Source: an uncultured Bacilli bacterium
Lineage (GTDB): Bacteria > Bacillota_I > Bacilli_A > RF39 > UBA660
DNA: 64,000 nt
NCBI GenBank assembly: GCA_947628535.1
Contig: CANRAF010000004.1
Location: forward strand, 8,566-72,565
Direction of reading: 5' to 3'
Part shown: positions 5,045-33,486 of the stretch, one piece after another
Position numbering within the stretch: the first letter of the stretch is position 1
Layout: each line of letters starts with the position of its first letter
Notes under the pieces: generated by a model
Database searches by the model: none
Seen by the model: the letters and a program-made list of their open reading frames with translations, nothing else
What the model was told of the DNA's origin: nothing
Position numbers and translations under genes: made by a program

Positions 5045-6403
5045 TTAAAATTTTACTCTTTCTTCAATGTAACTTTCTACTTCATCTAAATTTAAAGTAA
5101 TTTGCTTCATAGTATCTCTATCTCTAATTGTTACAGTATTATTTTTTAATGTTTCATCATCTACTGTTAGAGAAAATACTGTTCCGCTTGCATCTGCTCT
5201 TCTATATCTTTTACCTATTGATCCAGTTTCATCATAACTTGTCATAAATGATTTGGAAAGTTTTTCATAAATTTCTTTGGCTTTTTCACTGTGATATTTT
5301 TTTACAAGTGGTAAAACTGCGAGTTTATAAGGTGCGAGAAATGGGTGAAGTTTTAATACTTCTCTTGTGTCTTCTCCTACTTTTTCTACGTGATAAGCAT
5401 CAAAAAGGAGTGCGAGGACAGTTCTATCAAGACCATATGTTGATTCAATGACATAGGGAATATATTTTTCATTTGTTTCAGGATCTAAATATTCATGACT
5501 TGTTTTACTAAATTTGGTATGGTTTGAAAGATCAAAATCAGTACGATTATGAGTTCCATTAATTTCTCCCCAACCAAATGGAAATTTATATTCAATATCA
5601 GCGGCTTCTTTAGCATAATGAGCAAGTTTTTCGTGATCTTTAAATCTTAGTTTTTCTTTATCAAGTCCTAAATCTTCATAAAATTTAAGTCCATATTCTT
5701 TAAAGTAATTATATAGTTTTTCGTCTTCACCTTTTTTACAAAATGTTTGATATTCCATTTGCTCGAATTCAATTGTTCTAAAAGTAAAGTTACCTGGAGT
5801 TATTTCATTTCTAAAGGCTTTCCCTATTTGACCAATTGAAAATGGAAGTTTTGCTCGCATTGTTCTTTGTACGTTTAAAAAGTTTACGTACTCTCCTTGA
5901 GCGTTTTCTGGTCTTAAATAAATAACGTTTTTACTATCGTCTGTTACTCCACGATATGTTTCAAACATTAAATTAAATTCTCTTATTTTAGTAAAGTTTG
6001 ATTTACCACATTTAGGACAAGGAACTTTTTTTTCGCTTATAAACTTTTCCATTTCTTCTTTTGTCATAGCATCAGCATTAGTATTTTTATCAAAGTCATC
6101 AATTAAATTGTCTGCACGATGACGAGTTTTACATTCTTTGCAGTCTACAAGTGGATCGGAAAATGAAGCTACATGTCCAGATGCTTCCCATACTTTTGGG
6201 TGCATTAGTATATCTGCATCTACTTCATAAGCATTTGCTCTTTCCTGAATAAATCTTTTTCTCCAGGCATCTTTTACATTGTTTTTAAGTCTTGCACCAA
6301 GTGGTCCATAATCCCAAGTATTGGCAAGGCCTCCATATATTTCACTTCCGGGAAAAATAAAACCATAGTTTTTACAAAAATTTACCATTTTTTCCATATT
6401 CAT
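5045..6403 (-). CDS. glyQS: Glycine--tRNA ligase, homodimeric alpha2 type (GlyQS).
   Basis: Class II aaRS of the GlyRS2 type (...GFIFPGSEIYGGLANTWDYGPLG...). Start moved to the ATG at 6403 (MNMEK...), which has AGGAGG 9 nt upstream. The longer ORF in the track begins inside that RBS. Confidence 0.9.
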   Translation of the reverse strand: MNMEKMVNFCKNYGFIFPGSEIYGGLANTWDYGPLGARLKNNVKDAWRKRFIQERANAYEVDADILMHPKVWEASGHVASFSDPLVDCKECKTRHRADNLIDDFDKNTNADAMTKEEMEKFISEKKVPCPKCGKSNFTKIREFNLMFETYRGVTDDSKNVIYLRPENAQGEYVNFLNVQRTMRAKLPFSIGQIGKAFRNEITPGNFTFRTIEFEQMEYQTFCKKGEDEKLYNYFKEYGLKFYEDLGLDKEKLRFKDHEKLAHYAKEAADIEYKFPFGWGEINGTHNRTDFDLSNHTKFSKTSHEYLDPETNEKYIPYVIESTYGLDRTVLALLFDAYHVEKVGEDTREVLKLHPFLAPYKLAVLPLVKKYHSEKAKEIYEKLSKSFMTSYDETGSIGKRYRRADASGTVFSLTVDDETLKNNTVTIRDRDTMKQITLNLDEVESYIEERVKF

Positions 6404-8718: not shown

Positions 8719-9153
8719 TTATTCTTTATTATTAATTGCATTTAATAAATTTACTTTAAACATATCTTTTTCTTTATTTGTTTTAGAAATCATTACACCT
8801 TTGTAAGTACTTAATTCACTTCTATGACCTTCATCTAAAATTGAATCAGGTGTTATATTAGTAAGAAGTACTACTCTAGATGATTCATATACTGTATAAT
8901 GAAGAGTTAATTCACCATGCACTTTAGCAAATAAATTATCGGTTGGTAATTTAAGTTCAAATGTTTTGGTGTTTTCCTTTGAATCTGTTGAAACTAACTT
9001 ACCTAGAAATTTACCTTCTCTAATACTTGGATAGTATTCAAAAGTAAGTTTTTTGTAGGCAAGCATGTTGTATTTTCTTACAGATCTTTCTTTTTTTCTA
9101 AACTCATTTTCATTTACATATTCAAAGTGATAATGTAATTTCTTATTTTCCAT
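8719..9153 (-). CDS. Hypothetical protein (144 aa).
   Basis: ORF with no recognised family. Confidence 0.35.
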   Translation of the reverse strand: MENKKLHYHFEYVNENEFRKKERSVRKYNMLAYKKLTFEYYPSIREGKFLGKLVSTDSKENTKTFELKLPTDNLFAKVHGELTLHYTVYESSRVVLLTNITPDSILDEGHRSELSTYKGVMISKTNKEKDMFKVNLLNAINNKE

Positions 9154-9253
9154 ATTACCTAACCCCCTTATATTTTTGGTAATCTTTAATAAGTGCTTAA
9201 ATTATAGCATATTTTGAAAAAAATGTCAAATATTTTGGGAGTTTTTTAAATTT

Positions 9254-15253: not shown

Positions 15254-16360
15254 TTAATTCTTTATTATTTTAGTAATATCCTTCATTTTTAAATCATCAT
15301 TTTTTATTTCATAATATAGACTTTCAATTGGTTTTAATAAGAGCATTAATAAAATGAAAATTACTGCAATTGTTTGATATAAAGTTTTTTCTTTTAAATT
15401 TTTTAAAAGTTTGTTTATTAGAGTATTAAATAAATTATTAATTTTAGATGTGCTAAAAATAATTACTAGGATAAGCGTTAAAATTAATGCATATAATACA
15501 TAGATATCATCGTATGTTTTATAAGAAAAGATTTTTTGAAATATTAAAGTAAATGGTCTATGAATTAGATATATTAAAAGGCAGTATTTTCCAGCATTTG
15601 TAATAATTTTAAGTTTTTTATCAGGAATTATTATATAAAGAGTGAATATAGCAATTAAACTTATAATAATTAAACCAATCCTAATAAAGACATCTTCAAA
15701 ATCTTTGTAATGATAATATAAAAGTTTATTAGTAGAAATACCTAATTTTGTAGTTACTAAAAATGTTATTACTATAATGGAGCTTATAAGTAAGCAAATT
15801 AAAAATTTTTTAAAATTTTTAGTGTTTTGAAATTTAATTTTTAAATTTTTAAAATCATATTTGTAACCTATTAGGAAAAATGGAAAAAATGCTATTGTTC
15901 TTACTATTGATAATGTATTTCCAACATCACTCCAATAACCAATTAGTATAGAGATAAAAATACTAATTGGAAGAATGCCTTTTATTTTTGAAAGTGGTCT
16001 TATCATAAGACGCCAAGCTATTACTGAAAGCAAATACCAATATGAATATTGTGCTACTAAAAGATGAAATGAGTTTTCATGAAGATAAAATCTTGTAAAT
16101 AGCATTAAAAAGGTATTAAAAATTAAATATATTACTATTAATTTAGCATATGATTTTGCTTTGAAAACATTTTCACTTCTACTTAAATAACCTGTTGTAA
16201 AAATAAATGCTGGCATGTGAAAAAGATAGATAAATGTAGTTATATCACTTGCTAAAGTATTTGTAAGATGAGTTTTATATGTAAAAAGGAAATGAGCAAA
16301 GACTACAAGTATTATTAGTATTCCTTTATAATTATCCCAAAATGCACTTCTCTGTTTCAT
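15254..16360 (-). CDS. Acyltransferase family 3 (OafA/YrhL-like) membrane O-acyltransferase.
   Basis: N-terminus RSAFWDNYKGILIILVVFAHF matches the acyltransferase-3 signature. About 10 TM helices. First gene of the surface-polymer locus. Confidence 0.75.
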   Translation of the reverse strand: MKQRSAFWDNYKGILIILVVFAHFLFTYKTHLTNTLASDITTFIYLFHMPAFIFTTGYLSRSENVFKAKSYAKLIVIYLIFNTFLMLFTRFYLHENSFHLLVAQYSYWYLLSVIAWRLMIRPLSKIKGILPISIFISILIGYWSDVGNTLSIVRTIAFFPFFLIGYKYDFKNLKIKFQNTKNFKKFLICLLISSIIVITFLVTTKLGISTNKLLYYHYKDFEDVFIRIGLIIISLIAIFTLYIIIPDKKLKIITNAGKYCLLIYLIHRPFTLIFQKIFSYKTYDDIYVLYALILTLILVIIFSTSKINNLFNTLINKLLKNLKEKTLYQTIAVIFILLMLLLKPIESLYYEIKNDDLKMKDITKIIKN

Positions 16361-16420
16361 TTTTTATCCCCCTATGTTATTATAGCATTATTTTATTAAA
16401 TAAAAAAGACATGATTCTTA

Positions 16421-17716
16421 TTATTTTTTCATATCTTTTTCGTTTAACTCTTCAAGCTCTTTTATATATTTTTCATAAATATGGCGTCTTCCAATTTGGT
16501 CTGGGGCCTGTGTTAAATCAAAGTTTGGCATACTATTTCCTTCAATTAGTTCAATTTCTCCTTTTTCTGTTATTGCGATATCCCATCCAATATGCCTTAA
16601 CTCTGGAATAAGCCTACCACATTCTTCAATTGCTTTTATGATTTTATCAAAACATGGTACTTGAAAATCTTTAAATTTTACTTTGCTATCAGGGTGAATA
16701 TCAGAGTATCTGTGATACATATCTATAGCATCAGATATTATTTTTCCTGTTTTTGGATCTACTATAGCTCCCATTCCACCACAATGGAAATTATCTACAT
16801 CTTTTCCTTTTCTACCAAGTCTTGCGCATGCAATTAATATTCTTACTTTATCATCTGCACAACGAAGAGAATATACTCTAATAGTATTTAATGTTGTTCT
16901 ATTGAATTTTGCCATATCTTTATGTTGTTTTACTATTTCTTCAACAATAAAATTATGGTCTTTGCAGTATTCATAAAGTTCATTAGTACTATTAAAATTT
17001 TTAGAATCAATAATGCATGCTCCACCCCCCCCAGTACCTTCTATAGGTTTAGCAAAAAATTTAGGGAATTCTTTTACAAACTTACTAAATTCTTCTTGGG
17101 TCGCAGTATTAGCATTTAAAAATTTTCTTTTAACATATTTTTTAAATGTTTTATTAAATTGTTCTTTATCCTTTAATAAATAGATAAATTCTCTATTATT
17201 TGCGGCTTTATATACTTTATATACCCATCCTCTGTTTAAGAACTTTTCTGATTCTTCAAATGTTCTATTGTATAGTTCAAAATCAAAGAAATCATGATAC
17301 CAGTAACCATTTACTTTATAGGTATATAAAAATTTTATTAATAAATCCACCATGTCTTTATTAGTATTTTTAAAAAGATGGACTTGTCTTTTATAAATTT
17401 TTTTAAATCCTCTCATTTCAAATTTTATTTTATCTAAATACTCATTATCTTTAAAAACTATGTGTTTAACGTTTTTCTTTATGTCAGACTTAAACTCTAA
17501 ACTATCTAATATATAAGTCTTGTGAATAGGAATATTTTGTATTTCACGGTATTCCTCAGGAAGTTTTGTTTTAGTTATAAGACATATTTCTCTAACTGTA
17601 AAAAGAGGAACATTTTTATATACATATGTTTTTTTAGGATTAACTTTCTTATATATTTTCTTTAATTTTCTTTTTACTTTTCTCACTATTTTCATTTGAA
17701 ACCACTCCCTAGTCAA
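16421..17716 (-). CDS. ATP-grasp_ST (sugar-transfer-associated ATP-grasp) amidoligase paralogue A (431 aa). Contains an in-frame G8 tract.
   Basis: Family motifs FAKPIEGTGGGGACIID (Gly loop), VEEIVKQHKDMAKFNRTTLNTIRV, RLGRKGKDVDNFHCGGMGAIVDPKTGKI, HPDSKVKFKDFQVPCFDKI and IGWDIAITEKGEIELIEGN. Confidence 0.7.
   Translation of the reverse strand: MTREWFQMKIVRKVKRKLKKIYKKVNPKKTYVYKNVPLFTVREICLITKTKLPEEYREIQNIPIHKTYILDSLEFKSDIKKNVKHIVFKDNEYLDKIKFEMRGFKKIYKRQVHLFKNTNKDMVDLLIKFLYTYKVNGYWYHDFFDFELYNRTFEESEKFLNRGWVYKVYKAANNREFIYLLKDKEQFNKTFKKYVKRKFLNANTATQEEFSKFVKEFPKFFAKPIEGTGGGGACIIDSKNFNSTNELYEYCKDHNFIVEEIVKQHKDMAKFNRTTLNTIRVYSLRCADDKVRILIACARLGRKGKDVDNFHCGGMGAIVDPKTGKIISDAIDMYHRYSDIHPDSKVKFKDFQVPCFDKIIKAIEECGRLIPELRHIGWDIAITEKGEIELIEGNSMPNFDLTQAPDQIGRRHIYEKYIKELEELNEKDMKK
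17035..17042 (-). repeat. Homopolymeric G8 tract (C8 on the plus strand) encoding the Gly-rich loop of ATP-grasp paralogue A.
   Basis: Plus strand tccaCCCCCCCCagt. On the coding strand it reads GGT ACT GGG GGG GGT GGA = G T G G G G. Confidence 0.9.
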
Positions 17717-18452
17717 GATTTTTCATATATTCTTCATATTTATCTACTACTTCTTGGGCAGGCCCATCACCTTTTATTTCACCTTCGTTAAGCCAAATTA
17801 CTCTATCGCAAAGTGATTTTAAGGTTTTAGAACTATGTGATACTATAATTACTGTTCTATTTTCATCATTTATTAATTCTTTCATTTTGTTGTAACTTTT
17901 TTCTCTAAAATGAATATCTCCTACTGACAATACTTCATCAATTAACATAATATCTGTTTCCAAAATAGCTGTTATTGAAAAAGCAAGTTTTGAATACATT
18001 CCTGATGAATATGAGAGTACAGGTTTATAGATAAAATCCCCAAGTTCGGAAAATTCTATTATTTCGTCTAAACGTTTTTTTATTTCTTCTTCAGTATACC
18101 CGAGAAGAAGTCCTGATAGAAAAATATTTTCGTATCCAGATAATTTTCTTTGGAATCCTACTCCAATTGAAAGTAAAGAAATGCTGTTTCCATGAAGATC
18201 GATTTCTCCACTATCTGCTGAAAATATACCTGCTATTGCTCTTAAAAGAGTAGATTTCCCACTACCATTTTTCCCGCATATTCCTACTATTTCACCTTTA
18301 GGTATTTCAAAAGATACATTTTTTACAGCATGGAAATTGCGAGCATTTACTAAATTATTTAAACCAGATTTAGCTATAGAAAATCTTTTTATTTCCTTAT
18401 AGAAAATATTTAAATTTTTAACTGTTATTGCTATTTTTTCTTTTTTTGCCAT
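17709..18452 (-). CDS. ABC transporter ATP-binding protein, TagH/Wzt-like polysaccharide or teichoic-acid exporter.
   Basis: Walker A GKNGSGKST, ABC signature YSSGMYSKLAF, Walker B IMLIDEVLSVGD. Start overlaps the permease gene. Confidence 0.85.
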   Translation of the reverse strand: MAKKEKIAITVKNLNIFYKEIKRFSIAKSGLNNLVNARNFHAVKNVSFEIPKGEIVGICGKNGSGKSTLLRAIAGIFSADSGEIDLHGNSISLLSIGVGFQRKLSGYENIFLSGLLLGYTEEEIKKRLDEIIEFSELGDFIYKPVLSYSSGMYSKLAFSITAILETDIMLIDEVLSVGDIHFREKSYNKMKELINDENRTVIIVSHSSKTLKSLCDRVIWLNEGEIKGDGPAQEVVDKYEEYMKNLD

Positions 18453-19240
18453 TATCTCATCACCTTTACATAAGTATTTTCATATTTATAGATTGTTCTT
18501 ATTCCAAGTAGTGCAAGTAAAAGCCCAATAACGAACCATGCACCCATCAAGGTGAAATCCATACTCATGCCATATAATAAAACATCACGGCACTGCGTTA
18601 TGATCGCGGCTACTGGATTGGCTACTATTAATATCTCATTGTATGGCTCTGGGACTCTTTTATCTAAGGCAAAGAATACACCTGAAGCGTAAAATACAAG
18701 TCTTAAAGCAATTGTAGTAATGTTAGCTAAATCTTGAACAAATACTCCAAAATGCATAAATATAGCACAAATACCAAATGTAAATATAAATAGTATTATA
18801 AAAATTGGGAAAAAATATAGAACATTCCAAGTTATAGGTACTTGGTAAATAGCCATACAAATTATTACTAATAAGAATGAAATAAAGAATTTTACAGAAT
18901 TTATGGACATTCTAGTAAGTAAAAGAATAAATTTTGGGACATACACTTTTGTTACAGTATCTCTATTTGAAAGGACTAAACGAACACTTGCAAGTAAACT
19001 TTTTTGAAAGAAACTCCAAATTGTAAGTCCAATAAATACGAACACAGGGAAATATTCAACACTTGAATTGAATACAACAATTGCTATAAATGTATAAATA
19101 AGCATAAAGCAAATTGGTTCTAAGAAAAGCCAAATCCAGCTTAAATATGATCCTGCTATTTCAGCTTTTAATCCAGATTTTGTTGCATATGCTATGTATT
19201 TAGAATATTTCTTTAAATCCTTAAAAAATCTTTTTATCAT
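18452..19240 (-). CDS. ABC-2 type permease (TagG/Wzm-like).
   Basis: 262 aa, six TM segments, ABC-2 membrane-domain architecture. Immediately upstream of the ATPase gene. Confidence 0.8.
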   Translation of the reverse strand: MIKRFFKDLKKYSKYIAYATKSGLKAEIAGSYLSWIWLFLEPICFMLIYTFIAIVVFNSSVEYFPVFVFIGLTIWSFFQKSLLASVRLVLSNRDTVTKVYVPKFILLLTRMSINSVKFFISFLLVIICMAIYQVPITWNVLYFFPIFIILFIFTFGICAIFMHFGVFVQDLANITTIALRLVFYASGVFFALDKRVPEPYNEILIVANPVAAIITQCRDVLLYGMSMDFTLMGAWFVIGLLLALLGIRTIYKYENTYVKVMR

Positions 19241-19845
19241 TCTTTATCATCTTCCTTTTGTTTTTTAAAGCTTTCATATTCATCGGGTGTATTATAATCA
19301 ATAGTATTTTTATCTACTATTATAAATTTATCTTTTATTTGTTTTACATCAAATTCAAGGTTTTGAAATGATTGATATATTTGCCAGCCTTTACAGTTTC
19401 TTATTTTGCCTGAATTAAATAAATTTCTTACATTTTCAATGTGTTTTTTAAATAAAGATGAATCTTTTACTTTAATAGCAACAATTGATTTTTCATTTCC
19501 AAAGAATAAAATATCTTCAGGTTCTGTTTCAATTATTCTTTTTATATCTTTATCTGAATAATAAGTATCTCCATAAAGAAAACAAATATTGTTTTCAATA
19601 AGCTCAGCTGTAAATCTATCTAATTCAATTATATTTTGATTTGGTTCATATCTTGTTGCACCTTCAACTTCATATCTTTTGTCATGAGAAGTTATAATTA
19701 TTTCACTATTTTTATCAAACTTTTTAAGTTGTCTTACTATTCTCTCTAAAATAACTTCGCCATTTATTTTCATCAAATGTTTTGGTGTATCTTTATAGTT
19801 GTTCCATCTTTTGCCTTTCCCATCGGCCATTATTATATATTTCAT
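19237..19845 (-). CDS. MobA-like/LicC-like nucleotidyltransferase. Putative phospho-alcohol or sugar cytidylyltransferase.
   Basis: N-terminus MKYIIMADGKGKRW...TPKHLMKINGEVILERIVRQL matches the NTP_transf_3 G-x-G-x-R motif and the following PK(A/H)L motif. Confidence 0.55.
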   Translation of the reverse strand: MKYIIMADGKGKRWNNYKDTPKHLMKINGEVILERIVRQLKKFDKNSEIIITSHDKRYEVEGATRYEPNQNIIELDRFTAELIENNICFLYGDTYYSDKDIKRIIETEPEDILFFGNEKSIVAIKVKDSSLFKKHIENVRNLFNSGKIRNCKGWQIYQSFQNLEFDVKQIKDKFIIVDKNTIDYNTPDEYESFKKQKEDDKE

Positions 19846-19863
19846 AACATCACCTTGATATTT

Positions 19864-20991
19864 TTATTTTTCTTTCATTTTCTTAATAATGTAATCAGTT
19901 ATTAATTCAGTTGATTTACCAAGTTTTTTTGGTAAATATTTTTTTCTAAATTCTTGATAAGCTTTATTATCATAATTGTTCTTTCTTATTATTTCAATTA
20001 AATCTTTAACTCTTTTTGAAGAACATGTTGGAAGCACTTTATAAGCATCTAAGTTTATTCCATTATCTTTCATATATTTATCATAATCATATACGTAGAA
20101 TAACACTTTTTTATTTAAAATAGCAGCCTCTAAACAAATAGATGAGTAATCAGTTATTACGTAATCTGCTACTGTTAAAAGTTCAGTAGATTTAAATTCT
20201 GGGCATTCATATGCTTTACTTTTACTAATATCTATTTTTTGATTAGGATGCCCTCTTACTATTAAAATAAAATCTTCCTTTTCACATTCTTTAAGAAGTT
20301 TTTTAGGACCATCTACTTCATATGTTCTAAATGTTGGAGCGTAATAAACTATTTTTTTGTTTTTAAATTCAGGATATTTTTTATAAATTTCTTTTTTTAG
20401 ATTTTTTTCATTATCTAAAAGATAGTCTATCCTTGGAAGACCAAAATGTAATAAAATATCTTTTTTTACATTAAAGCCAGCCTCATAAAATTCATCAAAG
20501 GACTCTCCTCCTGCTAATATAGCATCATAGTTTTTATGCATACACATAAGATTAGCCATTTGTTTGCTTCTGCCAGATGTAGTATCTAAACTTTGATATC
20601 CTGACTTTTTAATTTTACCAATTGAATGCCATATTTGCAAGACAAATAGTGATTTTTTATGTTTTAGTATACATACTGGTATGCAATAGGAATCTATTAT
20701 AGCAATTTTTGAAGTTGCTAAATGATACATTTGTTTTAAAGTTAGAAAAAAGAATTTAATACTATTAATTATACCTTTTTTCATTCTTCTGCAGATAAAA
20801 ACCATTTTTATATTTTTATCCTTTTTTTCTAAACTTTCCTTTATTAAACGAAAATCAACGTTTATTTCATCAGTTTGTCTACTTATAAATACTACTTTTT
20901 TATTATTAGTAGGTAAAAGTTTTAAAAAGAAATATATTATTTTTAAAACGGCTTTAAATATGTGAATTAACAATACTTTCATAGTTATCAC
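19864..20991 (-). CDS. CDP-glycerol glycerophosphotransferase (TagB/TagF family).
   Basis: C-terminal half carries YYAPTFR, RGHPNQ, and ITDYSSICLEAAILNKKVLFYVYDYDKY, which are characteristic of the TagF-family catalytic domain. Confidence 0.8.
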   Translation of the reverse strand: MITMKVLLIHIFKAVLKIIYFFLKLLPTNNKKVVFISRQTDEINVDFRLIKESLEKKDKNIKMVFICRRMKKGIINSIKFFFLTLKQMYHLATSKIAIIDSYCIPVCILKHKKSLFVLQIWHSIGKIKKSGYQSLDTTSGRSKQMANLMCMHKNYDAILAGGESFDEFYEAGFNVKKDILLHFGLPRIDYLLDNEKNLKKEIYKKYPEFKNKKIVYYAPTFRTYEVDGPKKLLKECEKEDFILIVRGHPNQKIDISKSKAYECPEFKSTELLTVADYVITDYSSICLEAAILNKKVLFYVYDYDKYMKDNGINLDAYKVLPTCSSKRVKDLIEIIRKNNYDNKAYQEFRKKYLPKKLGKSTELITDYIIKKMKEK

Positions 20992-21041: not shown

Positions 21042-22091
21042 TTATTTTATAATTTTTTCTTTTCTGTAAAAATCTCCTAAAACGTTATTTCTTTGCCCTC
21101 CAAAAACTTGGATTATATTTACTCCTGATGAATTATTTGCTTCAATTACATATATATCATCATCAGTTGGTAAAACATCCCAGGCTACAAATTTAAATTC
21201 AGGAAGATTTTCAGCAAGTTTAATCATTTTGTTTTTTATTTGATTCCAGTTTGGAACTTTTACTCCTTCTATTTTTTTATTGGAATCAGGATGTTTTGAA
21301 TATTCTTTTTTATTTTGAATTGATTTTGCTTTACTTAATATTCCTGTTTCTAAATCAATTTTTGCAACTAATCCACCTTTACTTCCATTATCCACTGGGA
21401 TAGTTTTTTTACATCCTATTCGCTGAACTGCAAAAGGTATTTTTATATCACCTTCATCTCTTATGGTTATAATGCGAATTGTATTTGATGCTTTGTTATA
21501 TATATTATCTAAATATTTTGCTTGCCTTATGCAAGTAGAAATAAAGTAATTATCATTTTCACTTAATATTTTTTTTATTTCTACTTCAGCCAACTTTTCA
21601 AAATTAACTGAAAATTCATTATTTGAAAAATCAATTCTGAATACCCCAATTCCTTTTCCTACAGAAATTGGTTTAAAAAATGTGCTCTTTTCTTTTTTTA
21701 ATAAGCTTATTGCTTCATCAATTGTTGTCTCTTTATCGTCTTTATTTCTTATAACACCTTTTTCGCATTTTATTATAGTTTTTGGAGTTTTTATAAATTT
21801 TTCAATCATTTTCTCACAAATTAATTTGTTATTTAACATATATGAATTTGGATAATTTATCTTTCTAGATTTATACCAGTCAAACTCTGATAAATACTCT
21901 TTTTGAGTTTGTTTATTTAAATCATACAATGCAATTTGATCGGCTGTAAAACCTCCATTAAAGGCATAATACAAACGTTTATTAAGTGGTACTTTGAAAT
22001 GTTTCTTAGAAAATAATATTCTTACTATAAAAACAGGGATAAGCCAAAGAAATCTTTTTATTTTAAAAATAATTAATCTTATTTTTTTCAC
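21042..22091 (-). CDS. ATP-grasp_ST amidoligase paralogue B (349 aa).
   Basis: KPISVGKGIGVFRID, NTIRIITIRDEGDIKIPFAVQRIGCKKTIPVDNGSKGGLVAKIDLETG, HPDSNKKIEGVKVPNWNQI, VAWDVLPTDDDIYVIEAN. Confidence 0.65.
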   Translation of the reverse strand: MKKIRLIIFKIKRFLWLIPVFIVRILFSKKHFKVPLNKRLYYAFNGGFTADQIALYDLNKQTQKEYLSEFDWYKSRKINYPNSYMLNNKLICEKMIEKFIKTPKTIIKCEKGVIRNKDDKETTIDEAISLLKKEKSTFFKPISVGKGIGVFRIDFSNNEFSVNFEKLAEVEIKKILSENDNYFISTCIRQAKYLDNIYNKASNTIRIITIRDEGDIKIPFAVQRIGCKKTIPVDNGSKGGLVAKIDLETGILSKAKSIQNKKEYSKHPDSNKKIEGVKVPNWNQIKNKMIKLAENLPEFKFVAWDVLPTDDDIYVIEANNSSGVNIIQVFGGQRNNVLGDFYRKEKIIK

Positions 22092-22100
22092 TGTATCACC

Positions 22101-23285
22101 TTACCATTTTAATATTTTAGCTAGGTGCATTACAATAAATCTAGAATAGTTTGCATTTTTTATTTTTCTTTTTAATCTTCTAAATTTTCTAACTATTATA
22201 TTACTACCTTCGAAAACTAATTTTTCGTCTAATCCATCAAAATGATATTTTTGAATTAAATCATCAAATGAAACTAAATTTTCACATTTTGCTTTTTCTA
22301 TTATTAGATTACTTATAGAAAACTGTCTTCTATATTCTTTTAATCTCGTTCTATTTTCTTTAATTTGTGATAATCTTCCTGCTTCTTTTTTCCATTCTTT
22401 TTTCCAAGTTTTTTTAATATCTTTAAAGTGATTGTTTATTGTCGCTACTTTTATTTTTTCTTCGTCTCGTACTATTTTTATTGGAAGAGAATCAAAAGAA
22501 TAATCATCTTTTGTAAATGTAATACTTAGACACATTCCTTCATCTGTCCCCTTTTGTACACGTTGAAACTCTGTATCAAAAATGAAGTTTCCAAGAGAAT
22601 AAAATACAAGTTTTTTATTTATTCTTTCATATCCTTGTACTGTATGGGTATGATGGGCTACTATTACATCAACTCCCCAGGAAAGAAATTTTTTTATTTT
22701 CTTTTTTGTATATGGCATTGGGCTGTTTAAAAACTCTTCCCCACCATGATATACAAGTAAAACCCAATCGGTTTTTTCTTTTAATTCTTTTATTTTTCTT
22801 TTTAGTATTTTTTTATATTTTTCATGGGCTGGTCCCGGTGTTTCCATAGTTGCACTTACTGCATCTTTATATTGAAATGATAAAACTCCTACTTTAACAT
22901 CTTTACCAAGAATTAGATAATCCGTTGCTTCATCAATGTTTTTTCCAGCACCAATATATTTTACATTAGCTTTTTTAGTGTTTTCTAGGGTATCTAATAT
23001 ACCTCTTTCTCCATAATCTAACATGTGATTATTGGCAAATGAAAGTACTGGATTATTTATATACTTTTTAAGAAAACTTATTGTTTCAATATCACTTTTA
23101 TGGGCAAGAGCAGATTTTTTAGTTTTTGAAAAATCAGTTATTGGAGACTCAAAATTTAAAATATTATAGTCATTGCTATTTAAAAAATCATAGATTTTTC
23201 TATCAATATTTTTAGGATTTTTATACAAGTCTTTGGTAAATTCACTAAAAGCTATATCCCCTGTAAAACCAATTGTTGTTTTCAT
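22101..23285 (-). CDS. CapA/PgsA-family protein (capsule or poly-gamma-glutamate biosynthesis, metallophosphatase fold).
   Basis: N-terminus TIGFTGDIAFSEF, ...LSFANNHMLDYGERG..., HGGEEF, and VIVAHHTHTVQGYE are conserved CapA (PGA_cap) motifs. Confidence 0.8.
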   Translation of the reverse strand: MKTTIGFTGDIAFSEFTKDLYKNPKNIDRKIYDFLNSNDYNILNFESPITDFSKTKKSALAHKSDIETISFLKKYINNPVLSFANNHMLDYGERGILDTLENTKKANVKYIGAGKNIDEATDYLILGKDVKVGVLSFQYKDAVSATMETPGPAHEKYKKILKRKIKELKEKTDWVLLVYHGGEEFLNSPMPYTKKKIKKFLSWGVDVIVAHHTHTVQGYERINKKLVFYSLGNFIFDTEFQRVQKGTDEGMCLSITFTKDDYSFDSLPIKIVRDEEKIKVATINNHFKDIKKTWKKEWKKEAGRLSQIKENRTRLKEYRRQFSISNLIIEKAKCENLVSFDDLIQKYHFDGLDEKLVFEGSNIIVRKFRRLKRKIKNANYSRFIVMHLAKILKW

Positions 23286-24388
23286 TAACTATTCGCCTCC
23301 TCTTCTTCTTTTTGTTTTTCAATTAACTTATACATTTTATCGAAATATGATCTATATCCTTTTTTAGTAAATGTTTGAATAGTTACACATTGTGGTCTTG
23401 CATTTCCTTCTACTAAAACCCAGCCATCATTTGTTAAGGCAAGATCCCAACCAACACAGTGCATTTCAGAAAGCTCTGATGCCAAGCTTTTTACTGTTAC
23501 TAAAAGTTCATTCCATTTTGGAATTTGAAATCCTTTAAAAGTAATATTTGAATCAGGATGTACTTTTTCTTTATCACCTTTCCAGTCGAATCCATCACTT
23601 ATTATTTTTCCTGTTTCACTATCTATTAAGGCTCCAAGTCCTGAAGCACCCATATTATCTACACTACTTCCACCTTGGCCTGTTCTAATAAATGCCCAGA
23701 GAATGGATACATCTTCTTTATACTGAAATGTAACAACTCTGATTGTGTTAACTGAATTTTTATGAAAACAACCTAATTCATTTGATTGTTTAATCAATTC
23801 CTCAGCAACATAAGGAGCTTTTTCGATTGTATAGTTAAATAACTCTTTTTTATTTTTAAAATCTTTTACATTTATAATTTCTATTCCTTCGCCACTATGA
23901 CCTGAAAATGGTTTTAAAATAAATTTATCTTTATCTTTAATAAAATTGTTAAATATTTTTTCTTCTGTTTCATCTTTGATACATATTAAATCTCTTTTAT
24001 AGTATTTTTTAAATACTTTGTATGATAAATTTTTCTTATCTAAAACCTTTCTAAATTTTCTAGTATTAATAACTCTGTAATACTTATTAGTTAATTGTCT
24101 AGTTATATATGTGTCTCTTTTATCATATGGAACCTTTTCAAAATCAAATAAATAATATTCGCCTGCACGCAGAAAATATATATATCTATAAACAATAAGT
24201 TTCATATACATTTTTTTAAATTTTAATTTTTTTATATCTTCTCCTTCAAAGTTATATATTTCTGTTATAGTATCTTCTTTTATATTTTTGTATTTGCCAA
24301 ATATTATAAAACAAACTTTTAAAAATAAATAAATTAGTACAACAGACTTATTGTTTTTTTCATATATTTTTCTTAAAGTATTTCTCAT
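23285..24388 (-). CDS. ATP-grasp_ST amidoligase paralogue C (367 aa).
   Basis: KPFSGHSGEGIEIIN, NTIRVVTFQYKEDVSILWAFIRTGQGGSSVDNMGASGLGALIDSETGKI, HPDSNITFKGFQIPKWNEL, VGWDLALTNDGWVLVEGN. Confidence 0.7.
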   Translation of the reverse strand: MRNTLRKIYEKNNKSVVLIYLFLKVCFIIFGKYKNIKEDTITEIYNFEGEDIKKLKFKKMYMKLIVYRYIYFLRAGEYYLFDFEKVPYDKRDTYITRQLTNKYYRVINTRKFRKVLDKKNLSYKVFKKYYKRDLICIKDETEEKIFNNFIKDKDKFILKPFSGHSGEGIEIINVKDFKNKKELFNYTIEKAPYVAEELIKQSNELGCFHKNSVNTIRVVTFQYKEDVSILWAFIRTGQGGSSVDNMGASGLGALIDSETGKIISDGFDWKGDKEKVHPDSNITFKGFQIPKWNELLVTVKSLASELSEMHCVGWDLALTNDGWVLVEGNARPQCVTIQTFTKKGYRSYFDKMYKLIEKQKEEEEANS

Positions 24389-24471: not shown

Positions 24472-26487
24472 TTATTTAATAGGTTCAAATTTTATTTTTT
24501 TATCTTTCGCATATTTATGCGCATAAGAGTTTTTGTTTCCTTTTATAACTACATTATTACTTTTATAAAAAGCATAATTACTTATTTTTTGTACTGAATC
24601 AGGTATTGTTATTTCTTTTAAATTCTTACATTTTGCAAATGAATATTTTCCTATAGTTAGAAGTCCATCAGGTAATTCAATTTCTTTTAAGTTTTTACAA
24701 GAATAAAATGCTTCTTTTCCAATTGCTTTTAAATTTTTATTAAAGTTTATTTTTTCAATTGTACTACCATAAAAACATCTTTTAAAAATACGAGCCAAAT
24801 CATTATTTAAAGTTATTTCTTTTATTACTTTATTATCTTTAAATATTTCTGCTCCAATTTTTTCTACTGGTAAATTATTTATTTCATTAGGTAGTGTTTC
24901 TTTTTCTTCAATTTGCTTTACTTTAGTTATAGTAATCCAAGTTTTATATTGATTAAATGAGTATTTTTTATCTTTTTTAACTTTATATTCCTTATGAGAT
25001 GTTGCAAGTTGTTCTCCAATAATTGTTCCGAATTGTTTGTCTATAATGGCTGCAAAATTCATACCATGAGATGCTTTAAATAGAATAATGTCATCTTTTT
25101 GCAAGTTTTTATTTAAAGCATTTACCAGTTCCTCTTTATCTTTACAATAGATAGAATTTTTCCTTTTTTTACTATATTCTTCATATGCATATTTCATTTT
25201 TTCTCCATTAAATATGATAAGGTCGATATTATGCTCCAAGAGAAGTTTTCCAACATCACGGTGGATTTGTTCAGAAATATTTCCAAGTTCAAAGATATCT
25301 CCAAGTACTGCTACTCTTCTTGCGCTTTCTTTTATTTCTATTAGCTCAAATGTTTTTAAAATATTTTTAATAGCATCATAAGATGAGTTATAACAATCTG
25401 CTAAAATTTTATATTCACCAACATTTATTAAGTTTTGTCTAACGCCTTTTGTTTTATATTTAGTAATACCTCTTATTATTTTTTCTTCACTAATATTTAA
25501 ATATTTTCCAATTATATAAGCAGTTAAAGCATTTAATATATGATGTTCTCCTATTACTTTTAATTCAACTGGAATTTCTTTGTTTTCAATACTATCTACT
25601 ATAATAAATCTTGTTCCTTTGCTAGTTACTTTAATATATTTAGCATAATAGTCTGCTTTTTTATTATTTAAGGAAAAAGATAGTCTTTTTTGAACAAATT
25701 TATGTTTTCTTAAAATATCATCATCATAATTAATAATTGCAAGTCCATCTTTTTTGCCATAATCTGAAAGAGTAAATTTTTCTTTTGCTATATTTTCTCT
25801 TGACCCATACCATTCAATATGTGAATCTTTTATATTAGTATAAACTGCAATATCAGCTTCGAGAAGAAGCGCAGATCTTTTTACAATATCATAGGCTCCA
25901 TTTCCAGCTCCTGCTTCTTGGAGTAATATTTTGTCATTATAATTTAATTTTTTTACATTTTCAGCAGCTTTGAATGCAGAATTACTATTACCAGCAGATG
26001 CCACCATTTTGTTTTTATATTCTTCTTTTAAGCATGCTTCTATCATATCTTTAGTTGAAGTTTTACCAATAGAACCTGTTACTGCAATTACTTTTGCTTT
26101 TGATTGGTTTCTTATATAGTTTAAAGTTTTTAGTCCTGCGGATACCGGATCTTTACATATTAAACATCTCGCATTTTCTATTTTTTCGGGTGTTACAACA
26201 AACATGGCATTTTTACTAATTTTTTCTTTCATTTTGTCAGTTAAATTAAGATATCTAAATGTATAATAAATACATCCTGGTTTTATATTTTTGTATGATA
26301 TAGTTGGTTCTTTTATTTTTTTTCTTTTTAAAGATTCATATTCTTTTGGCACTTCTATTCCAGTTATTTCAGAAATTTTCTCTAAAGTTAATCTTTTTTT
26401 ATTTGCAAAAATTACTTTAAAAAATAATCTTTCTATTTTTCTATAAATTATTGCCAATTTTCTTATTATTTTTTTCATTTTTTTCAC
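24472..26487 (-). CDS. Mur-ligase-family protein (MurF-like amide ligase) fused to C-terminal BspA-type leucine-rich repeats (LRR_5).
   Basis: Mur ligase P-loop VIAVTGSIGKTSTKDMIEA. MurF-like NIKDSHIEWYGSRENIAKEK. C-terminal 120 aa carry repeats of the pattern IGKEAFYSCKNLKEIELP / IGKYSFAKCKNLKEITIP. The start abuts the xseB stop (RBS GGTGA inside xseB). Confidence 0.7.
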   Translation of the reverse strand: MKKMKKIIRKLAIIYRKIERLFFKVIFANKKRLTLEKISEITGIEVPKEYESLKRKKIKEPTISYKNIKPGCIYYTFRYLNLTDKMKEKISKNAMFVVTPEKIENARCLICKDPVSAGLKTLNYIRNQSKAKVIAVTGSIGKTSTKDMIEACLKEEYKNKMVASAGNSNSAFKAAENVKKLNYNDKILLQEAGAGNGAYDIVKRSALLLEADIAVYTNIKDSHIEWYGSRENIAKEKFTLSDYGKKDGLAIINYDDDILRKHKFVQKRLSFSLNNKKADYYAKYIKVTSKGTRFIIVDSIENKEIPVELKVIGEHHILNALTAYIIGKYLNISEEKIIRGITKYKTKGVRQNLINVGEYKILADCYNSSYDAIKNILKTFELIEIKESARRVAVLGDIFELGNISEQIHRDVGKLLLEHNIDLIIFNGEKMKYAYEEYSKKRKNSIYCKDKEELVNALNKNLQKDDIILFKASHGMNFAAIIDKQFGTIIGEQLATSHKEYKVKKDKKYSFNQYKTWITITKVKQIEEKETLPNEINNLPVEKIGAEIFKDNKVIKEITLNNDLARIFKRCFYGSTIEKINFNKNLKAIGKEAFYSCKNLKEIELPDGLLTIGKYSFAKCKNLKEITIPDSVQKISNYAFYKSNNVVIKGNKNSYAHKYAKDKKIKFEPIK

Positions 26488-28581: not shown

Positions 28582-30168
28582 TTAAACTGTTTTTTCATCT
28601 TCATCAAACCAAATGTATTTATCTATTGTATCTCTTATTCCTTTTCCTTTAGCTATAGCCCAGTAGTATTGCTGTAAAGTTGCATCTCCATCATGATTTC
28701 CTTCAATTAGTTGAACGCTCCCATCTTCGTTTATTACAGCGTCCCAACCAACATATGAAACAGTTTTAACAACTTTTGCAGCCTCTTCAACCATTTTTAA
28801 TACTTTATCCCATGATGGAACTTGAAAGCCTTTAAACTTTACATTTGAAATTGGATGTTTTTCTACAAGCTCTCCAAATTTTGTACTACCATCACCTATT
28901 ATTTTACCAGTTTTAACATCAACTGGAGCAATTACTCCGCCGGCAGACCAATTATCAATAAAGCTTCCTCTTGAGGCGCCGAATCGCACTGTTGCATTTA
29001 TTATATCTACTTTGCCATCCTTATAATATGTATGAATTCTTATAGTGTTTACTGTTTCAGAGTTAAATTTTGCCATATCTTTATGCTGAATTATTATTTG
29101 TTCTACTATTCCCTTTTTATAATGTTTTATCTTTTTATATGTTATATAGTTGATAATTTCATATTTACTGACTTTATATTTTCTTATACCTACACCACAT
29201 GCAGTATCTAGTGGTTTAAATATAAATTCTTTTTCTCCGTTTATTAATTTTTTGTACTCATTATAATTTAATGTTTCTACAGAATACCACTTTCTTTTTA
29301 TCCATTTTTTAAATTTGTTATTAAATAAAATTTTTTTCTTGAAATATTTCCAAGTATCTGCATAATCAGTTGACCTTAAATATAGCTTTCTCCAAACTTC
29401 AGTTGTGATAAATTCTTTTTGTTTTTGAGGATTCATTTTATATAGGTTATATACATCAAATTCATGAAAATTGCTGCCACAATTTATTCTTGATTTTAAT
29501 ATTTCAAGATTAAGTTTAGCTTCGTTCCAATTCATTTCTTCCATTATTCTTCTTCTGTCTTTATCTTCTTGTTCATGAATTATCTTGTTTGCTAAAGGAA
29601 TTCTTTTTGATCTTATTTTTTTGTATTGTTCTATGTTTTTTAATTCTTTAGATGAAAGACTATATTTTCCGCTTACAATAAATTTTAATTCATTATAGTT
29701 TTTTTCTTTAGCAATTTTTAATCGTTCTTCTGCTTCCTCTTTAGAACAATTTGTTTTCTCACTTATGATGTTTATATACCATTTTTTATTTAAATTTCTT
29801 TTTTCAATTGATTTTTTAATAGTTTCTTTAAGTGATTCTTTATCTTTTTCAGTAAGGTCCCATACTTTATATTTATAATATTGCCATAATTTTAAATCAT
29901 ATTTTTTTGCATCATTTAAAATTTGTTTTTCGGATAAACTAGACTCTTTATTTATTTTTTTTATGTACTCTTTTTTCTTTTTTTCATTTTCTCCAATCAT
30001 TTTTAACTTATTTTTATTTAAACAATAGTATTTATACTTTACATAATCATTGATGCTTATTCCACATATTTTGGCATAAATTATTTTACTGGTTGATTTT
30101 ATAACTCCTTCTCCGGTATTTTTCTTAACTTTTCTTATACATCTTATTAGTTGTTTTAATTTTTTCAT
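28582..30168 (-). CDS. Long ATP-grasp_ST amidoligase paralogue P1 (528 aa). N-terminal triple-repeat domain plus C-terminal ATP-grasp.
   Basis: C-terminal motifs KPLDTACGVGIRKYK, NTIRIHTYYKDGKVDIINATVRFGASRGSFIDNWSAGGVIAPVDVKTGKI, HPISNVKFKGFQVPSWDKV, VGWDAVINEDGSVQLIEGN. The N-terminal 250 aa carry three repeats of about 30 aa (AKICGISINDYVKYKYY / AKKYDLKLWQYYKYKVW / AKEKNYNELKFIVSGKY). Confidence 0.7.
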   Translation of the reverse strand: MKKLKQLIRCIRKVKKNTGEGVIKSTSKIIYAKICGISINDYVKYKYYCLNKNKLKMIGENEKKKKEYIKKINKESSLSEKQILNDAKKYDLKLWQYYKYKVWDLTEKDKESLKETIKKSIEKRNLNKKWYINIISEKTNCSKEEAEERLKIAKEKNYNELKFIVSGKYSLSSKELKNIEQYKKIRSKRIPLANKIIHEQEDKDRRRIMEEMNWNEAKLNLEILKSRINCGSNFHEFDVYNLYKMNPQKQKEFITTEVWRKLYLRSTDYADTWKYFKKKILFNNKFKKWIKRKWYSVETLNYNEYKKLINGEKEFIFKPLDTACGVGIRKYKVSKYEIINYITYKKIKHYKKGIVEQIIIQHKDMAKFNSETVNTIRIHTYYKDGKVDIINATVRFGASRGSFIDNWSAGGVIAPVDVKTGKIIGDGSTKFGELVEKHPISNVKFKGFQVPSWDKVLKMVEEAAKVVKTVSYVGWDAVINEDGSVQLIEGNHDGDATLQQYYWAIAKGKGIRDTIDKYIWFDEDEKTV

Positions 30169-30181
30169 TATATACTTCCTT

Positions 30182-31756
30182 TCACTTGATATATGGCTTT
30201 ATTATATTTAAAATTCCTTTTTCTTCTGTGATTCCATAAATAGATTGGAATACACGCATTGCATGATTATGGTTTCCTTCGATTAATTCGATTTTGTTAT
30301 CATTAGTAATAGCGATATCCCATCCAACATATACTACATCTTCAATTTTTTTTGCTACCTCATTTATTGTTTTTATTACTTTATCCCAATTAGGTATTTG
30401 GAAACCTTTAAATTTTATATTTGAGATTGGATGAGTTTTATAAATATTTCCTTTTTTATCTGCACCATCAGTATCAATTTTACCTGTTTTAGTGTTGATG
30501 CCCGCGATTATTCCGCCTGCCGACCAGTTATCATAATTATTTTTTACACCTGTCCTAAAAACAGCTGCTAATATATTTACTTTCCCGTCAACTTTAATTG
30601 TTGCTATACGAATAGAATTACATGATTCTTCATGAAACTTTGCAGTGTCTTTATGTTGAATTATAAATTCTTCAATTAATCCGGGTCCGCTTTGCATTAT
30701 ACATTCGTAAACATTTCTATTTTTCTTTTCGTTTTCGTTTACCTTAAATTTTTGAAAACCCTTGCCTTCCTGCATATCTAATGGCTTATAGGCAATTAAA
30801 TTTAATCCTTTTATATTTTTTTCGAAATCTTCAAATGTTAGATTTTCTGTTAAAAACCATTTTCTATTTATCCATTTTTTAAAGGTTTTATTAAATAAAG
30901 ATTTGTCTTTAAAATATTTATACTTTTCTTTTGGAACCCAATACTTTATTTTCATTTTAAAATGATTATCTTCTGTCATGAATTTACGTTGTTCTTCTTT
31001 TGATTTATTATATAGTTTATAAAGATAATATTCATCTCCATTACAACCACAATTTATTCTGGCATTAATATAGTTTATACGATATCTTCCAATACTAATC
31101 CCCATTTCATTAGAAGCTTTTAATCTTTGATTTTGTTTTTCTTTTTGTTTTTCTTCAAAACTTTTTTCTTCCTCTTTTGAAAGAATTGGATTCTCTTTTT
31201 CTTTTAAATTTTCTAAGTCTTTTTTACTTAATAAATATAAATCTTCTGTTATGAATTTTTTGTATGAATATCCTTTTTTTCTAGCAATATCCATTCTTTC
31301 TATTGCTTCTTGCTCCTTTAAATTAGTTTTTTCCATTACAACTTTTGCATACCATAATTTGTTCTTTTCATTTTTTTCTTGTAACTTATCAAGTGCTTGT
31401 TTGTATTCCTTTAACTCCTCTAGTGTGAATTCCCACATCCTGTCTTTTATAAACATTTTATAAGTTATTCCAAGTTTTTGAGAAGTTTTAACTAGCTTTA
31501 TTGCTTCGCTTTTACTAACCCCCCCCCCAGCATATTTTTGGGTCTTTTTTATTGCTTCTTTTTTTAGTTTTAGTATTTCTCCAAGTTCAATCAATTCTTC
31601 TTTTTTCTTTTTATAACTTTTATTTTTTGCATAATCATTTAGACTTATTCCATATTTATGTGCCTTTATTAGCCTTTTTATTATTTTAAAACTATTCCAT
31701 CCTGTTTCTCGTTTTATCTTATTAAAGTTTTTTATCTTTTTCTTCATGTTTTTCAT
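30182..31756 (-). CDS. Long ATP-grasp_ST amidoligase paralogue P2 (524 aa). Contains an in-frame G10 tract.
   Basis: KPLDMQEGKGFQKFK, NSIRIATIKVDGKVNILAAVFRTGVKNNYDNWSAGGIIAGINTKTGKI, HPISNIKFKGFQIPNWDKV, VGWDIAITNDNKIELIEGN. N-terminal repeats AHKYGISLNDYAKNKSY / SQKLGITYKMFIKDRMW / ARKKGYSYKKFITEDLY. Confidence 0.7.
   Translation of the reverse strand: MKNMKKKIKNFNKIKRETGWNSFKIIKRLIKAHKYGISLNDYAKNKSYKKKKEELIELGEILKLKKEAIKKTQKYAGGGVSKSEAIKLVKTSQKLGITYKMFIKDRMWEFTLEELKEYKQALDKLQEKNEKNKLWYAKVVMEKTNLKEQEAIERMDIARKKGYSYKKFITEDLYLLSKKDLENLKEKENPILSKEEEKSFEEKQKEKQNQRLKASNEMGISIGRYRINYINARINCGCNGDEYYLYKLYNKSKEEQRKFMTEDNHFKMKIKYWVPKEKYKYFKDKSLFNKTFKKWINRKWFLTENLTFEDFEKNIKGLNLIAYKPLDMQEGKGFQKFKVNENEKKNRNVYECIMQSGPGLIEEFIIQHKDTAKFHEESCNSIRIATIKVDGKVNILAAVFRTGVKNNYDNWSAGGIIAGINTKTGKIDTDGADKKGNIYKTHPISNIKFKGFQIPNWDKVIKTINEVAKKIEDVVYVGWDIAITNDNKIELIEGNHNHAMRVFQSIYGITEEKGILNIIKPYIK
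31480..31640. repeat. Near-identical DNA segment of about 160 bp shared with 34780..34940 (paralogues P2 and P4).
   Basis: By eye the two stretches are almost identical, for example ...cttttactaaCCCCCCCCCCagcatatttttggg(t/c)ttttttattgcttctttttttagttttagtatttctccaagttcaatcaattctt... Confidence 0.7.
31519..31528 (-). repeat. Homopolymeric G10 tract (C10 on the plus strand) within paralogue P2 (codons about 76-79, ...KYAGGGVSKS...).
   Basis: Plus strand ctaaCCCCCCCCCCagc. The coding strand reads GCT GGG GGG GGG GTT = A G G G V. Confidence 0.9.
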
Positions 31757-31817
31757 ATCAAAATCTCTCCTTAATTATGTCTATATTTTAATTACAAATA
31801 TATTTTCTATATTAAGT

Positions 31818-33371: not shown

Positions 33372-33486
33372 TTTTTACTCCTTAATTATTTTCACTATAT
33401 TCATTATAATTAGTTTTAAAAATATAGTCAAATAAAAAACATAGCATTTATCTCACAAAATATATGTATTACTATGTTTTTTTGTT

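Follow-up and report, generated by a model that had tools for sequence, protein, structure and literature searches.

The window analysed here, i.e., the whole 64,000-nucleotide (nt) stretch of contig CANRAF010000004.1, belongs to an uncultured Bacilli bacterium from a gut metagenome, which has the traits of an anaerobic, sporulation-gene-bearing, Bacilli-like Firmicute with a low guanine-plus-cytosine (GC) content (genes SpoIVB, SpoIIM, SirA and NrdDG). Seven paralogous genes of the window belong to the ATP-grasp family PF14397 (ATPgrasp_ST; Table 1), and one of them, which is referred to below as gene A, contains eight consecutive guanines (G8) in its coding strand, the minus strand. On the plus strand, the run appears as the C8 of CCCCCCCC. 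A first-pass annotation had correctly recognised the C8 and its G8 counterpart in the paralogue of 431 amino acids (aa), and the peptide that it had given, FAKPIEGTGGGGACIID, was correct by translation; the position that it had assigned to the run, 17035-17042, was off by 10. The codons of the segment read AAA CCT ATA GAA GGT ACT GGG GGG GGT GGA GCA, which translates to KPIEGTGGGGA. The G8 spans three of the four loop glycines, the fourth being written GGA, and it supplies Gly229, Gly230 and two bases of Gly231 of the 431-aa open reading frame (ORF), which correspond to Gly222-224 of a 424-aa protein. The run is, thus, inside the reading frame (codons 229-231) and above the cut-off of at least 7 nt that PhasomeIt applies to G/C tracts.

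Table 1. Coordinates of the tracts, genes and segments discussed in the text (positions in the window).
Feature	Position	Strand	Remarks
G8 homopolymer	17025-17032	-	codons GGG GGG GG(T)
K-P-I-E-G-T-G-G-G-G-A loop codons	17018-17050	-	Lys-Pro strand end and Gly-rich hairpin, ATP-grasp nucleotide site
ATPgrasp_ST ligase 'paralogue A' (gene A)	16421-17716	-	maximal ORF of 431 aa from TTG 17716; PF14397
Acyl_transf_3 gene	15254-16360	-	downstream of gene A; 60-nt spacer with a separate TGCTATAAT box and the Shine-Dalgarno sequence AGGGGGA
ABC ATPase	17709-18452	-	Pfam
ABC-2 permease	18452-19240	-	Pfam
Nucleotidyltransferase	19237-19845	-	Pfam
TagF-like glycerophosphotransferase	19864-20991	-	Pfam
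ATPgrasp_ST paralogues without a tract	21042-22091 and 23285-24388	-	either side of the PGA_cap gene (22101-23285)
528-aa ATPgrasp_ST	28582-30168	-	no tract
524-aa ATPgrasp_ST	30182-31756	-	carries G10; between the 528-aa and 517-aa genes
517-aa ATPgrasp_ST	31818-33371	-	no tract
520-aa ATPgrasp_ST	33487-35049	-	carries G10
G10 (GGG GGG GGG G)	31519-31528	-	AGGGV at codons 77-79 of the 524-aa paralogue
G10	34821-34830	-	codons 74-76 of the 520-aa paralogue
Putative conversion patch, 524-aa gene	31496-31600	-	about 105 nt, at least 97% identical to 34798-34902
Putative conversion patch partner, 520-aa gene	34798-34902	-	

The true start of gene A is almost certainly ATG 17695, which opens a 424-aa form, is preceded by an AGGGAG Shine-Dalgarno sequence and yields the length of the 424-aa NCBI protein (P0001). 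The upstream ABC-ATPase gene has its TAG stop at 17709, and the Shine-Dalgarno sequence of gene A follows it. The GC content of gene A was 26.8% compared to 26.1% across all of the ORFs, and horizontal gene transfer was rejected as the source of its G-rich codons on these values.

Gene A matched the Pfam profile PF14397 over residues 168-411 with 179.3 bits (cut-off 31.4; E = 1.2e-52). Because the sequence search of the Protein Data Bank (PDB) gave no significant match for gene A, the fold assignment was drawn from an AlphaFold2 (AF2) model that was based on 20 homologues (mean predicted local distance difference test score, pLDDT, 92.8) and from a Foldseek search with this model. The latter found 554 PDB chains at E <= 1e-3, and its top matches were only ATP-grasp ligases (Ddl, PsnB, YwfE/BacD, RimK and LysX), each with a probability of 1.00. 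In the model, a β-strand (212-217) ends with K216-P217, a loop follows (218-226, EGTGGGGA) in which the local pLDDT dips to 83, and a second β-strand covers 227-230. Across 26 sequences, i.e., 20 orthologues and six paralogues, K216, P217, G223, W371, D372, E385 and N387 were invariant and G386 was nearly invariant. The model has an ATP-grasp fold, and the sequence has the conserved lysine, the Gly-rich loop after it and the C-terminal acidic/Asn metal ligands of this superfamily. Sub-threshold alignments of hidden Markov models, which are weak, set the segment on the Lys/Gly-loop regions of glutathione synthetase (GshB 144-174) and of the TTL-family enzymes. The alignments, the AF2 model and the Foldseek matches support the first-pass reading that the G8 encodes the Gly-rich nucleotide-binding loop of ATPgrasp_ST, placing it after the invariant Lys-Pro of the ATP-grasp domain. 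The product of gene A is likely an ATP-dependent carboxylate-amine ligase (amidoligase), with a wall polymer as its presumed substrate. Mixed codons do occur at this site in the other six paralogues, as the first-pass annotation had noted; however, their loops are merely G-x-G, so no tract would be possible there.

The GC content of the window is 25.8%, and it contains exactly three G/C runs of at least 8 nt, the C8 of gene A and two C10 runs; the next longest is a single C6. All three are found in the ATPgrasp_ST family, which fills about 15% of the window, and this run count confirmed the earlier claim that three of the seven ATP-grasp genes, and nothing else in the 64 kb, have G tracts of at least 8 nt. 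A run of this kind could be incidental, since a catalytic loop with four glycines needs only two rare GGG codons to produce it, in which case slippage in a presumably repair-proficient Firmicute would be too low to matter and there would be no selection for mutability. Dinucleotide-preserving shuffles gave an expectation of 0.12 C8/G8 matches compared to the seven overlapping matches that were observed. Under a stricter null model, in which the protein sequences were held and the synonymous codons were redrawn from the window's own usage in 500 trials, 0.11 runs of at least 8 nt were expected per window, and three or more were obtained in none of the trials; for gene A alone, a run of at least 8 nt arose in 1.2%. 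The three observed runs are, thus, an over-representation under both models, which argues against a purely incidental run. GGG accounts for 8% of the 990 Gly codons of the window, and five of the six GGG-GGG pairs fall in the three tracts. The other seven runs of three or more glycines are written in mixed codons, and four of them sit in the Gly-rich tail of a 559-aa DUF2207 protein, whose gene is the likeliest in the window to yield a run by chance. The G8 run is non-random. Tandem Repeats Finder revealed no further contingency-type repeats in the window. The longest intragenic G run apart from the three tracts is a G6 in nrdD (44762-44767). A part of the coding-strand G5 runs belongs to Shine-Dalgarno sequences, such as the run at 16368-16372 in the AGGGGGA before the acyltransferase ATG at 16360, and the one at 9163-9167, in the AAGGGGG before an ORF that starts at 9153, is possibly another case.

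The proteins nearest to gene A share at most 54% identity with it. The contigs of the relatives, whose GC content is 25-27%, are syntenic in the order PGA_cap, ATP-grasp, TagF-like, nucleotidyltransferase, ABC-2, ABC ATPase and ATP-grasp A, followed by SpoIVB and a two-component system. In the six distinct positional orthologues, the two conserved glycines are encoded by GGT or GGA and never by GGG, and the fifth loop residue is E, Y or Q. The interrupted form of the site that the first-pass annotation had envisaged was, thus, seen among them (GGT GGT GAA GGA and similar). The consensus of the 20 orthologues is KPxxGTGGxGA, in which the fifth position is Y, E, Q, N, A or T elsewhere and Gly in gene A alone. 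There were no G/C runs of at least 7 nt in the loci of the six syntenic orthologues, none of at least 8 nt in 1.25 Mb of sequence from 80 GTDB loci that contain ATPgrasp_ST genes and none of at least 7 nt in the 40 of those loci with a GC content below 30% (541 kb). Because the orthologues write GGT or GGA, have a residue other than Gly at the fifth position and lack such runs in their loci, the G8 is derived in this lineage. Its formation required two synonymous T/A>G changes to the rare codon and one replacement to Gly, each of which extends the run. As these changes took place in a strongly AT-preferring genome, selection for the run fits better than drift, and the avoidance of GGG in all six orthologues, together with the empty related loci, speaks against an incidental origin. 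In a related species, a G6 occurs within the ATPgrasp_ST paralogue that follows the orthologue of ATP-grasp A (L088 12114-12119, L089 5519-5524 and L090 2654-2659); it is the sole G/C run of at least 6 nt in those syntenic loci and is too short for a tract.

The two G10 tracts belong to the 524-aa and 520-aa genes, which, together with the 528-aa and 517-aa genes, make up four tandem long ATPgrasp_ST paralogues. They sit in a non-conserved N-terminal linker, where they seem to have been inserted, the 528-aa and 517-aa paralogues being without the 'AGG' insertion, and in both shifted frames a stop occurs within 1-9 codons after the tract. The two genes share at least 97% identity in the patch that surrounds the tracts, compared to 68% nucleotide identity outside it, and, therefore, the two G10 tracts share one origin; this indicates that the patch of about 105 nt with its G10 probably spread between the paralogues by gene conversion. 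The first-pass proposal of independent switches that would give eight combinations is weakened by this common origin. The G8 and the G10 tracts are found in the same family, on the same strand and in frame, and all consist of runs of GGG codons.

We propose that the G8 is a lineage-specific, slippage-prone contingency tract that would switch gene A ON and OFF, an interpretation that we prefer to its rivals but on which we are evenly divided. With the G8, translation would read through to the full 424 or 431 aa (ON), while slipped-strand mispairing during replication would add or drop one G and shift the frame within the ATP-binding loop. In silico, G9 gives a product of 236 aa and G7 one of 260 aa. 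Both lack residues 262-431, including the invariant W371-D372, E385/N387 and the ELIEGN Mg/ATP motif, so such products would be without the C-terminal catalytic half (OFF). A frameshift in gene A would probably not silence the downstream Acyl_transf_3 gene, because a separate TGCTATAAT box and Shine-Dalgarno sequence precede it, and any polarity is expected to be small. Combined with the G10 tracts of the 524-aa and 520-aa genes, the G8 could enable the population to vary the amino-acid or peptide decorations of its wall polymer, and the selective pressure on such switching would likely be phage or host immunity. The run could instead have an in-frame or translational role, in which changes of three nucleotides tune the length of the loop or the rare codons cause pausing at the ATP loop. 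It would agree with this that G5 and G11 remain in frame (430 and 432 aa, respectively) and that the fifth loop position varies in the family. However, the length of the loop (GTGGxGA) is constant in all 20 orthologues, single-base slippage in homopolymers is far more frequent than slippage by three bases, and the stops right after the tract in both other frames of the G10 linkers fit an ON/OFF logic, which makes such a role very unlikely.

Length variation was sought in other assemblies and collections. Three ENA assemblies contain the same species at a coverage of about 2x (contigs L001, L002 and L093-L095 among them). L001 and L002 are conspecific at 99% identity; L001 comes from a strain that differs slightly, whereas L093 does not differ from the window. 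In L001 (about position 31288), the 524-aa gene has a frameshifting 17-nt indel downstream of an intact G10, and in L002 (34177 and 33672) the 520-aa gene has a TGG>TGA nonsense change and an in-frame insertion of 21 nt, all of these differences being uncertain at 2x coverage. These disruptions reflect either a strain-level inactivation of the paralogues or errors of the low coverage; if they are real, the loss of these long paralogues is tolerated. When N-terminal pieces of the long paralogues that a frameshift had truncated were sought, there was a single match, P0058 (174 aa, L001), which was rejected as a product of tract slippage, as it is made by the 17-nt indel beyond the intact G10. 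In the 520-aa gene, contigs L094 and L095 break off 17 nt short of the G10; this was rejected as tract heterogeneity, since exactly 55 nt of the shared patch are covered before the break, which corresponds to a repeat break at k = 55. P0049, with 73% identity over 15% of the query, was rejected as a fragment of gene A; it is a gene-call fusion from another organism, in which the C-terminus of an orthologue is joined to a Mur-ligase gene with leucine-rich repeats (LRR). Positions 1-55 of L093 repeat 33827-33881 of the window in inverted orientation, a hairpin artefact that SPAdes produced at the contig end with k = 55, and the ends of contigs in such low-coverage assemblies call for caution. 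A metagenome scan at JGI with the flanks of the G10 gave 0 hits.

As gene A is known from a single contig of a metagenome-assembled genome (MAG), with no second copy for comparison, the homopolymer or its length could have been miscalled during sequencing or assembly. The frame is intact through the tract, however, and the protein downstream of it aligns with the orthologues to its end, while the sister G10 was exactly reproduced in two independent ENA assemblies. Moreover, the polyG artefacts of two-colour sequencing fall at the ends of reads and not in internal runs that are in frame. We regard an artefact as extremely improbable; both it and in-frame tuning are unlikely explanations of the G8.

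Several observations weigh against a switch at the G8. In a collection of 15 billion proteins, the clusters that contain gene A and its two neighbours each comprise a single sequence, so that there is no second copy of gene A, and the JGI metagenome scan, in which the gap between the flanks of the G8 was variable, had 0 hits. The tract of the 524-aa gene showed no length variation, being G10 in each of the three assemblies compared (window, L001 and L093), which stem from three samples. The tract is merely 8 nt long, near the low end of switching tract lengths, and it falls where the loop needs Gly anyway, two of the positions being conserved for catalysis, so the protein sequence explains part of it; the chance value of 1.2% for gene A alone is not astronomically small. 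In contrast to the longer G10 tracts in the linker, the G8 is located in the middle of its gene, at codon 229 of 431, and within a catalytic loop that is conserved, and the common patch suggests two, not three, independent tract origins in the window. Finally, there are 24 A/T runs of at least 8 nt in the window, 18 of which are inside ORFs, including the genes for a tRNA synthetase, UvrC and GatB. Housekeeping genes of this genome tolerate 8-nt homopolymers of A/T, and a run of that length is not obviously dangerous here. Exceptional in the window are only the G/C runs, not the A/T runs. The first-pass condition that homopolymers of this length should not be common elsewhere holds for the G/C runs, of which the rest of the window and the relatives are free, and fails for A/T runs of at least 8 nt, which are common. 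The A8 runs inside ORFs appear as T8 on the plus strand, e.g., at 6026-6033, 54306-54313, 54945-54952 and 63317-63324, and the tRNA synthetase among the genes concerned is of class II. The authors of PhasomeIt also stated that tracts near the cut-off may mutate at rates below 1e-5 (PMC6321876). An incidental run is, thus, the main rival reading, although we consider it somewhat less likely than not, given the codon shuffles, the codons of the orthologues and the confinement of the window's other long G runs to paralogues of the same family.

The systems that seem closest to the proposed switch are the polyG contingency genes of Campylobacter, with which the tract shares the structural features of an intragenic G/C run of at least 7 nt, truncation by changes of one nucleotide and over-representation, in what is probably also a surface-polymer context. 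In Campylobacter, a cut-off of at least 7 nt was used for G/C tracts, 95% of the intragenic tracts have the G on the coding strand, and all of the tracts of at least 8 nt in C. jejuni NCTC 11168 vary (PMC6321876). The G8 of C. jejuni cj1139 showed high switching rates, and its extension to G11 increased the mutability tenfold (PMC3401435). The phase-variable decoration of the Campylobacter capsule is described, in outline, as helping to avoid phage. As in the window, the polyG genes of the capsule, lipooligosaccharide and flagellar-glycan loci of C. jejuni (cj1139/wlaN with G8 and the MeOPN, i.e., O-methyl phosphoramidate, transferases) have an intragenic run of at least 8 G on the coding strand in an AT-rich genome. 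They likewise encode enzymes that decorate surface glycans, a role that is presumed for gene A, occur as several tract-bearing paralogues per locus and are truncated by a change of one nucleotide. Unlike the low-GC Firmicute described here, which is known from its sequence, C. jejuni is an epsilonproteobacterium without MutS/MutL in which switching was shown. Furthermore, its tracts lie in a linker and in other enzymes that act on another polymer, whereas the G8 is found in the catalytic ATP loop of a PF14397 protein and probably concerns a teichoic-acid-like polymer. The core phasome of C. fetus includes an ATP-grasp gene with a G(9-10) tract (PMC6321876). Compared by its description only, this gene resembles gene A in having an intragenic polyG in a surface-structure region; its tract length differs among genomes, whereas gene A is known from one copy.

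Among repair-proficient Firmicutes, Bacillus subtilis is known to switch its swrA gene reversibly by frameshifts, the tract alternating between poly-A8 and poly-A9. Like gene A, swrA has an intragenic homopolymer of 8 nt; it differs in that the run is poly-A and governs swarming, while a poly-G and the decoration of the wall are proposed here, and A8 runs are apparently neutral in the present window.

Taking the G8 and the G10 tracts together, an AT-rich, spore-forming lineage of gut Bacilli may have independently evolved a Campylobacter-style polyG 'phasome' that is limited to an expanded family of ATP-grasp amidoligases acting on a teichoic-acid/peptide wall polymer, in which one switch arose by recoding a glycine loop (G8) and another (G10) was copied by gene conversion, giving combinatorial surface variation to a Gram-positive commensal. 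This wider scenario is tentative, and we lean slightly against it. Most of the polyG contingency loci described so far come from Campylobacter, Helicobacter, Neisseria and Haemophilus; if the tracts switch, such loci would be extended to a low-GC Gram-positive gut lineage and to wall-polymer amidoligases. There would then be two origins of such switches, the synonymous recoding of a glycine loop and gene conversion among paralogues, and homopolymer scans of MAGs could expose hidden surface-variation systems that bear on phage and host interactions. If the tract is static, it is a mere curiosity of codon usage.

The four genes upstream of gene A (17709-20991) form an operon-like string, whose order is matched in the relatives L084, L089, L091 and L092. 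The surface-polymer context is given by Pfam matches to TagF-like, ABC-2/ABC (TagGH-like), PGA_cap, Mur-ligase-LRR and Acyl_transf_3 genes, from which the polymer is likely a teichoic-acid-like cell-wall polymer; the role proposed for gene A depends on the same context. A scan of the window with Rfam gave zero hits. The Lys-rich N-terminal extension of about 260 aa in the 517-528-aa paralogues (28582-35049) had no homologue outside the species in a search of 5.8 billion proteins, the sole match being a fragment from L001. Beside the PGA_cap (CapA-like) gene, there is a gene (24472-26487) for a fusion of a CapB-like Mur-ligase domain with BspA-type leucine-rich repeats, and the presence of both genes inside a TagF/TagGH-type locus suggests a hybrid teichoic-acid/peptide polymer. 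Gene A and the Mur-ligase-LRR protein have in common a short N-terminal motif, (F/L)(S/T)(I/V/L)xxIxEIxGIxVPK(E/K)Y, which is located at about residues 32-55 of the former (17560-17630) and about residues 30-55 of the latter. The motif is also kept in the orthologues, where C38 is nearly invariant and P46 is invariant, and it may represent a common docking or recognition module.

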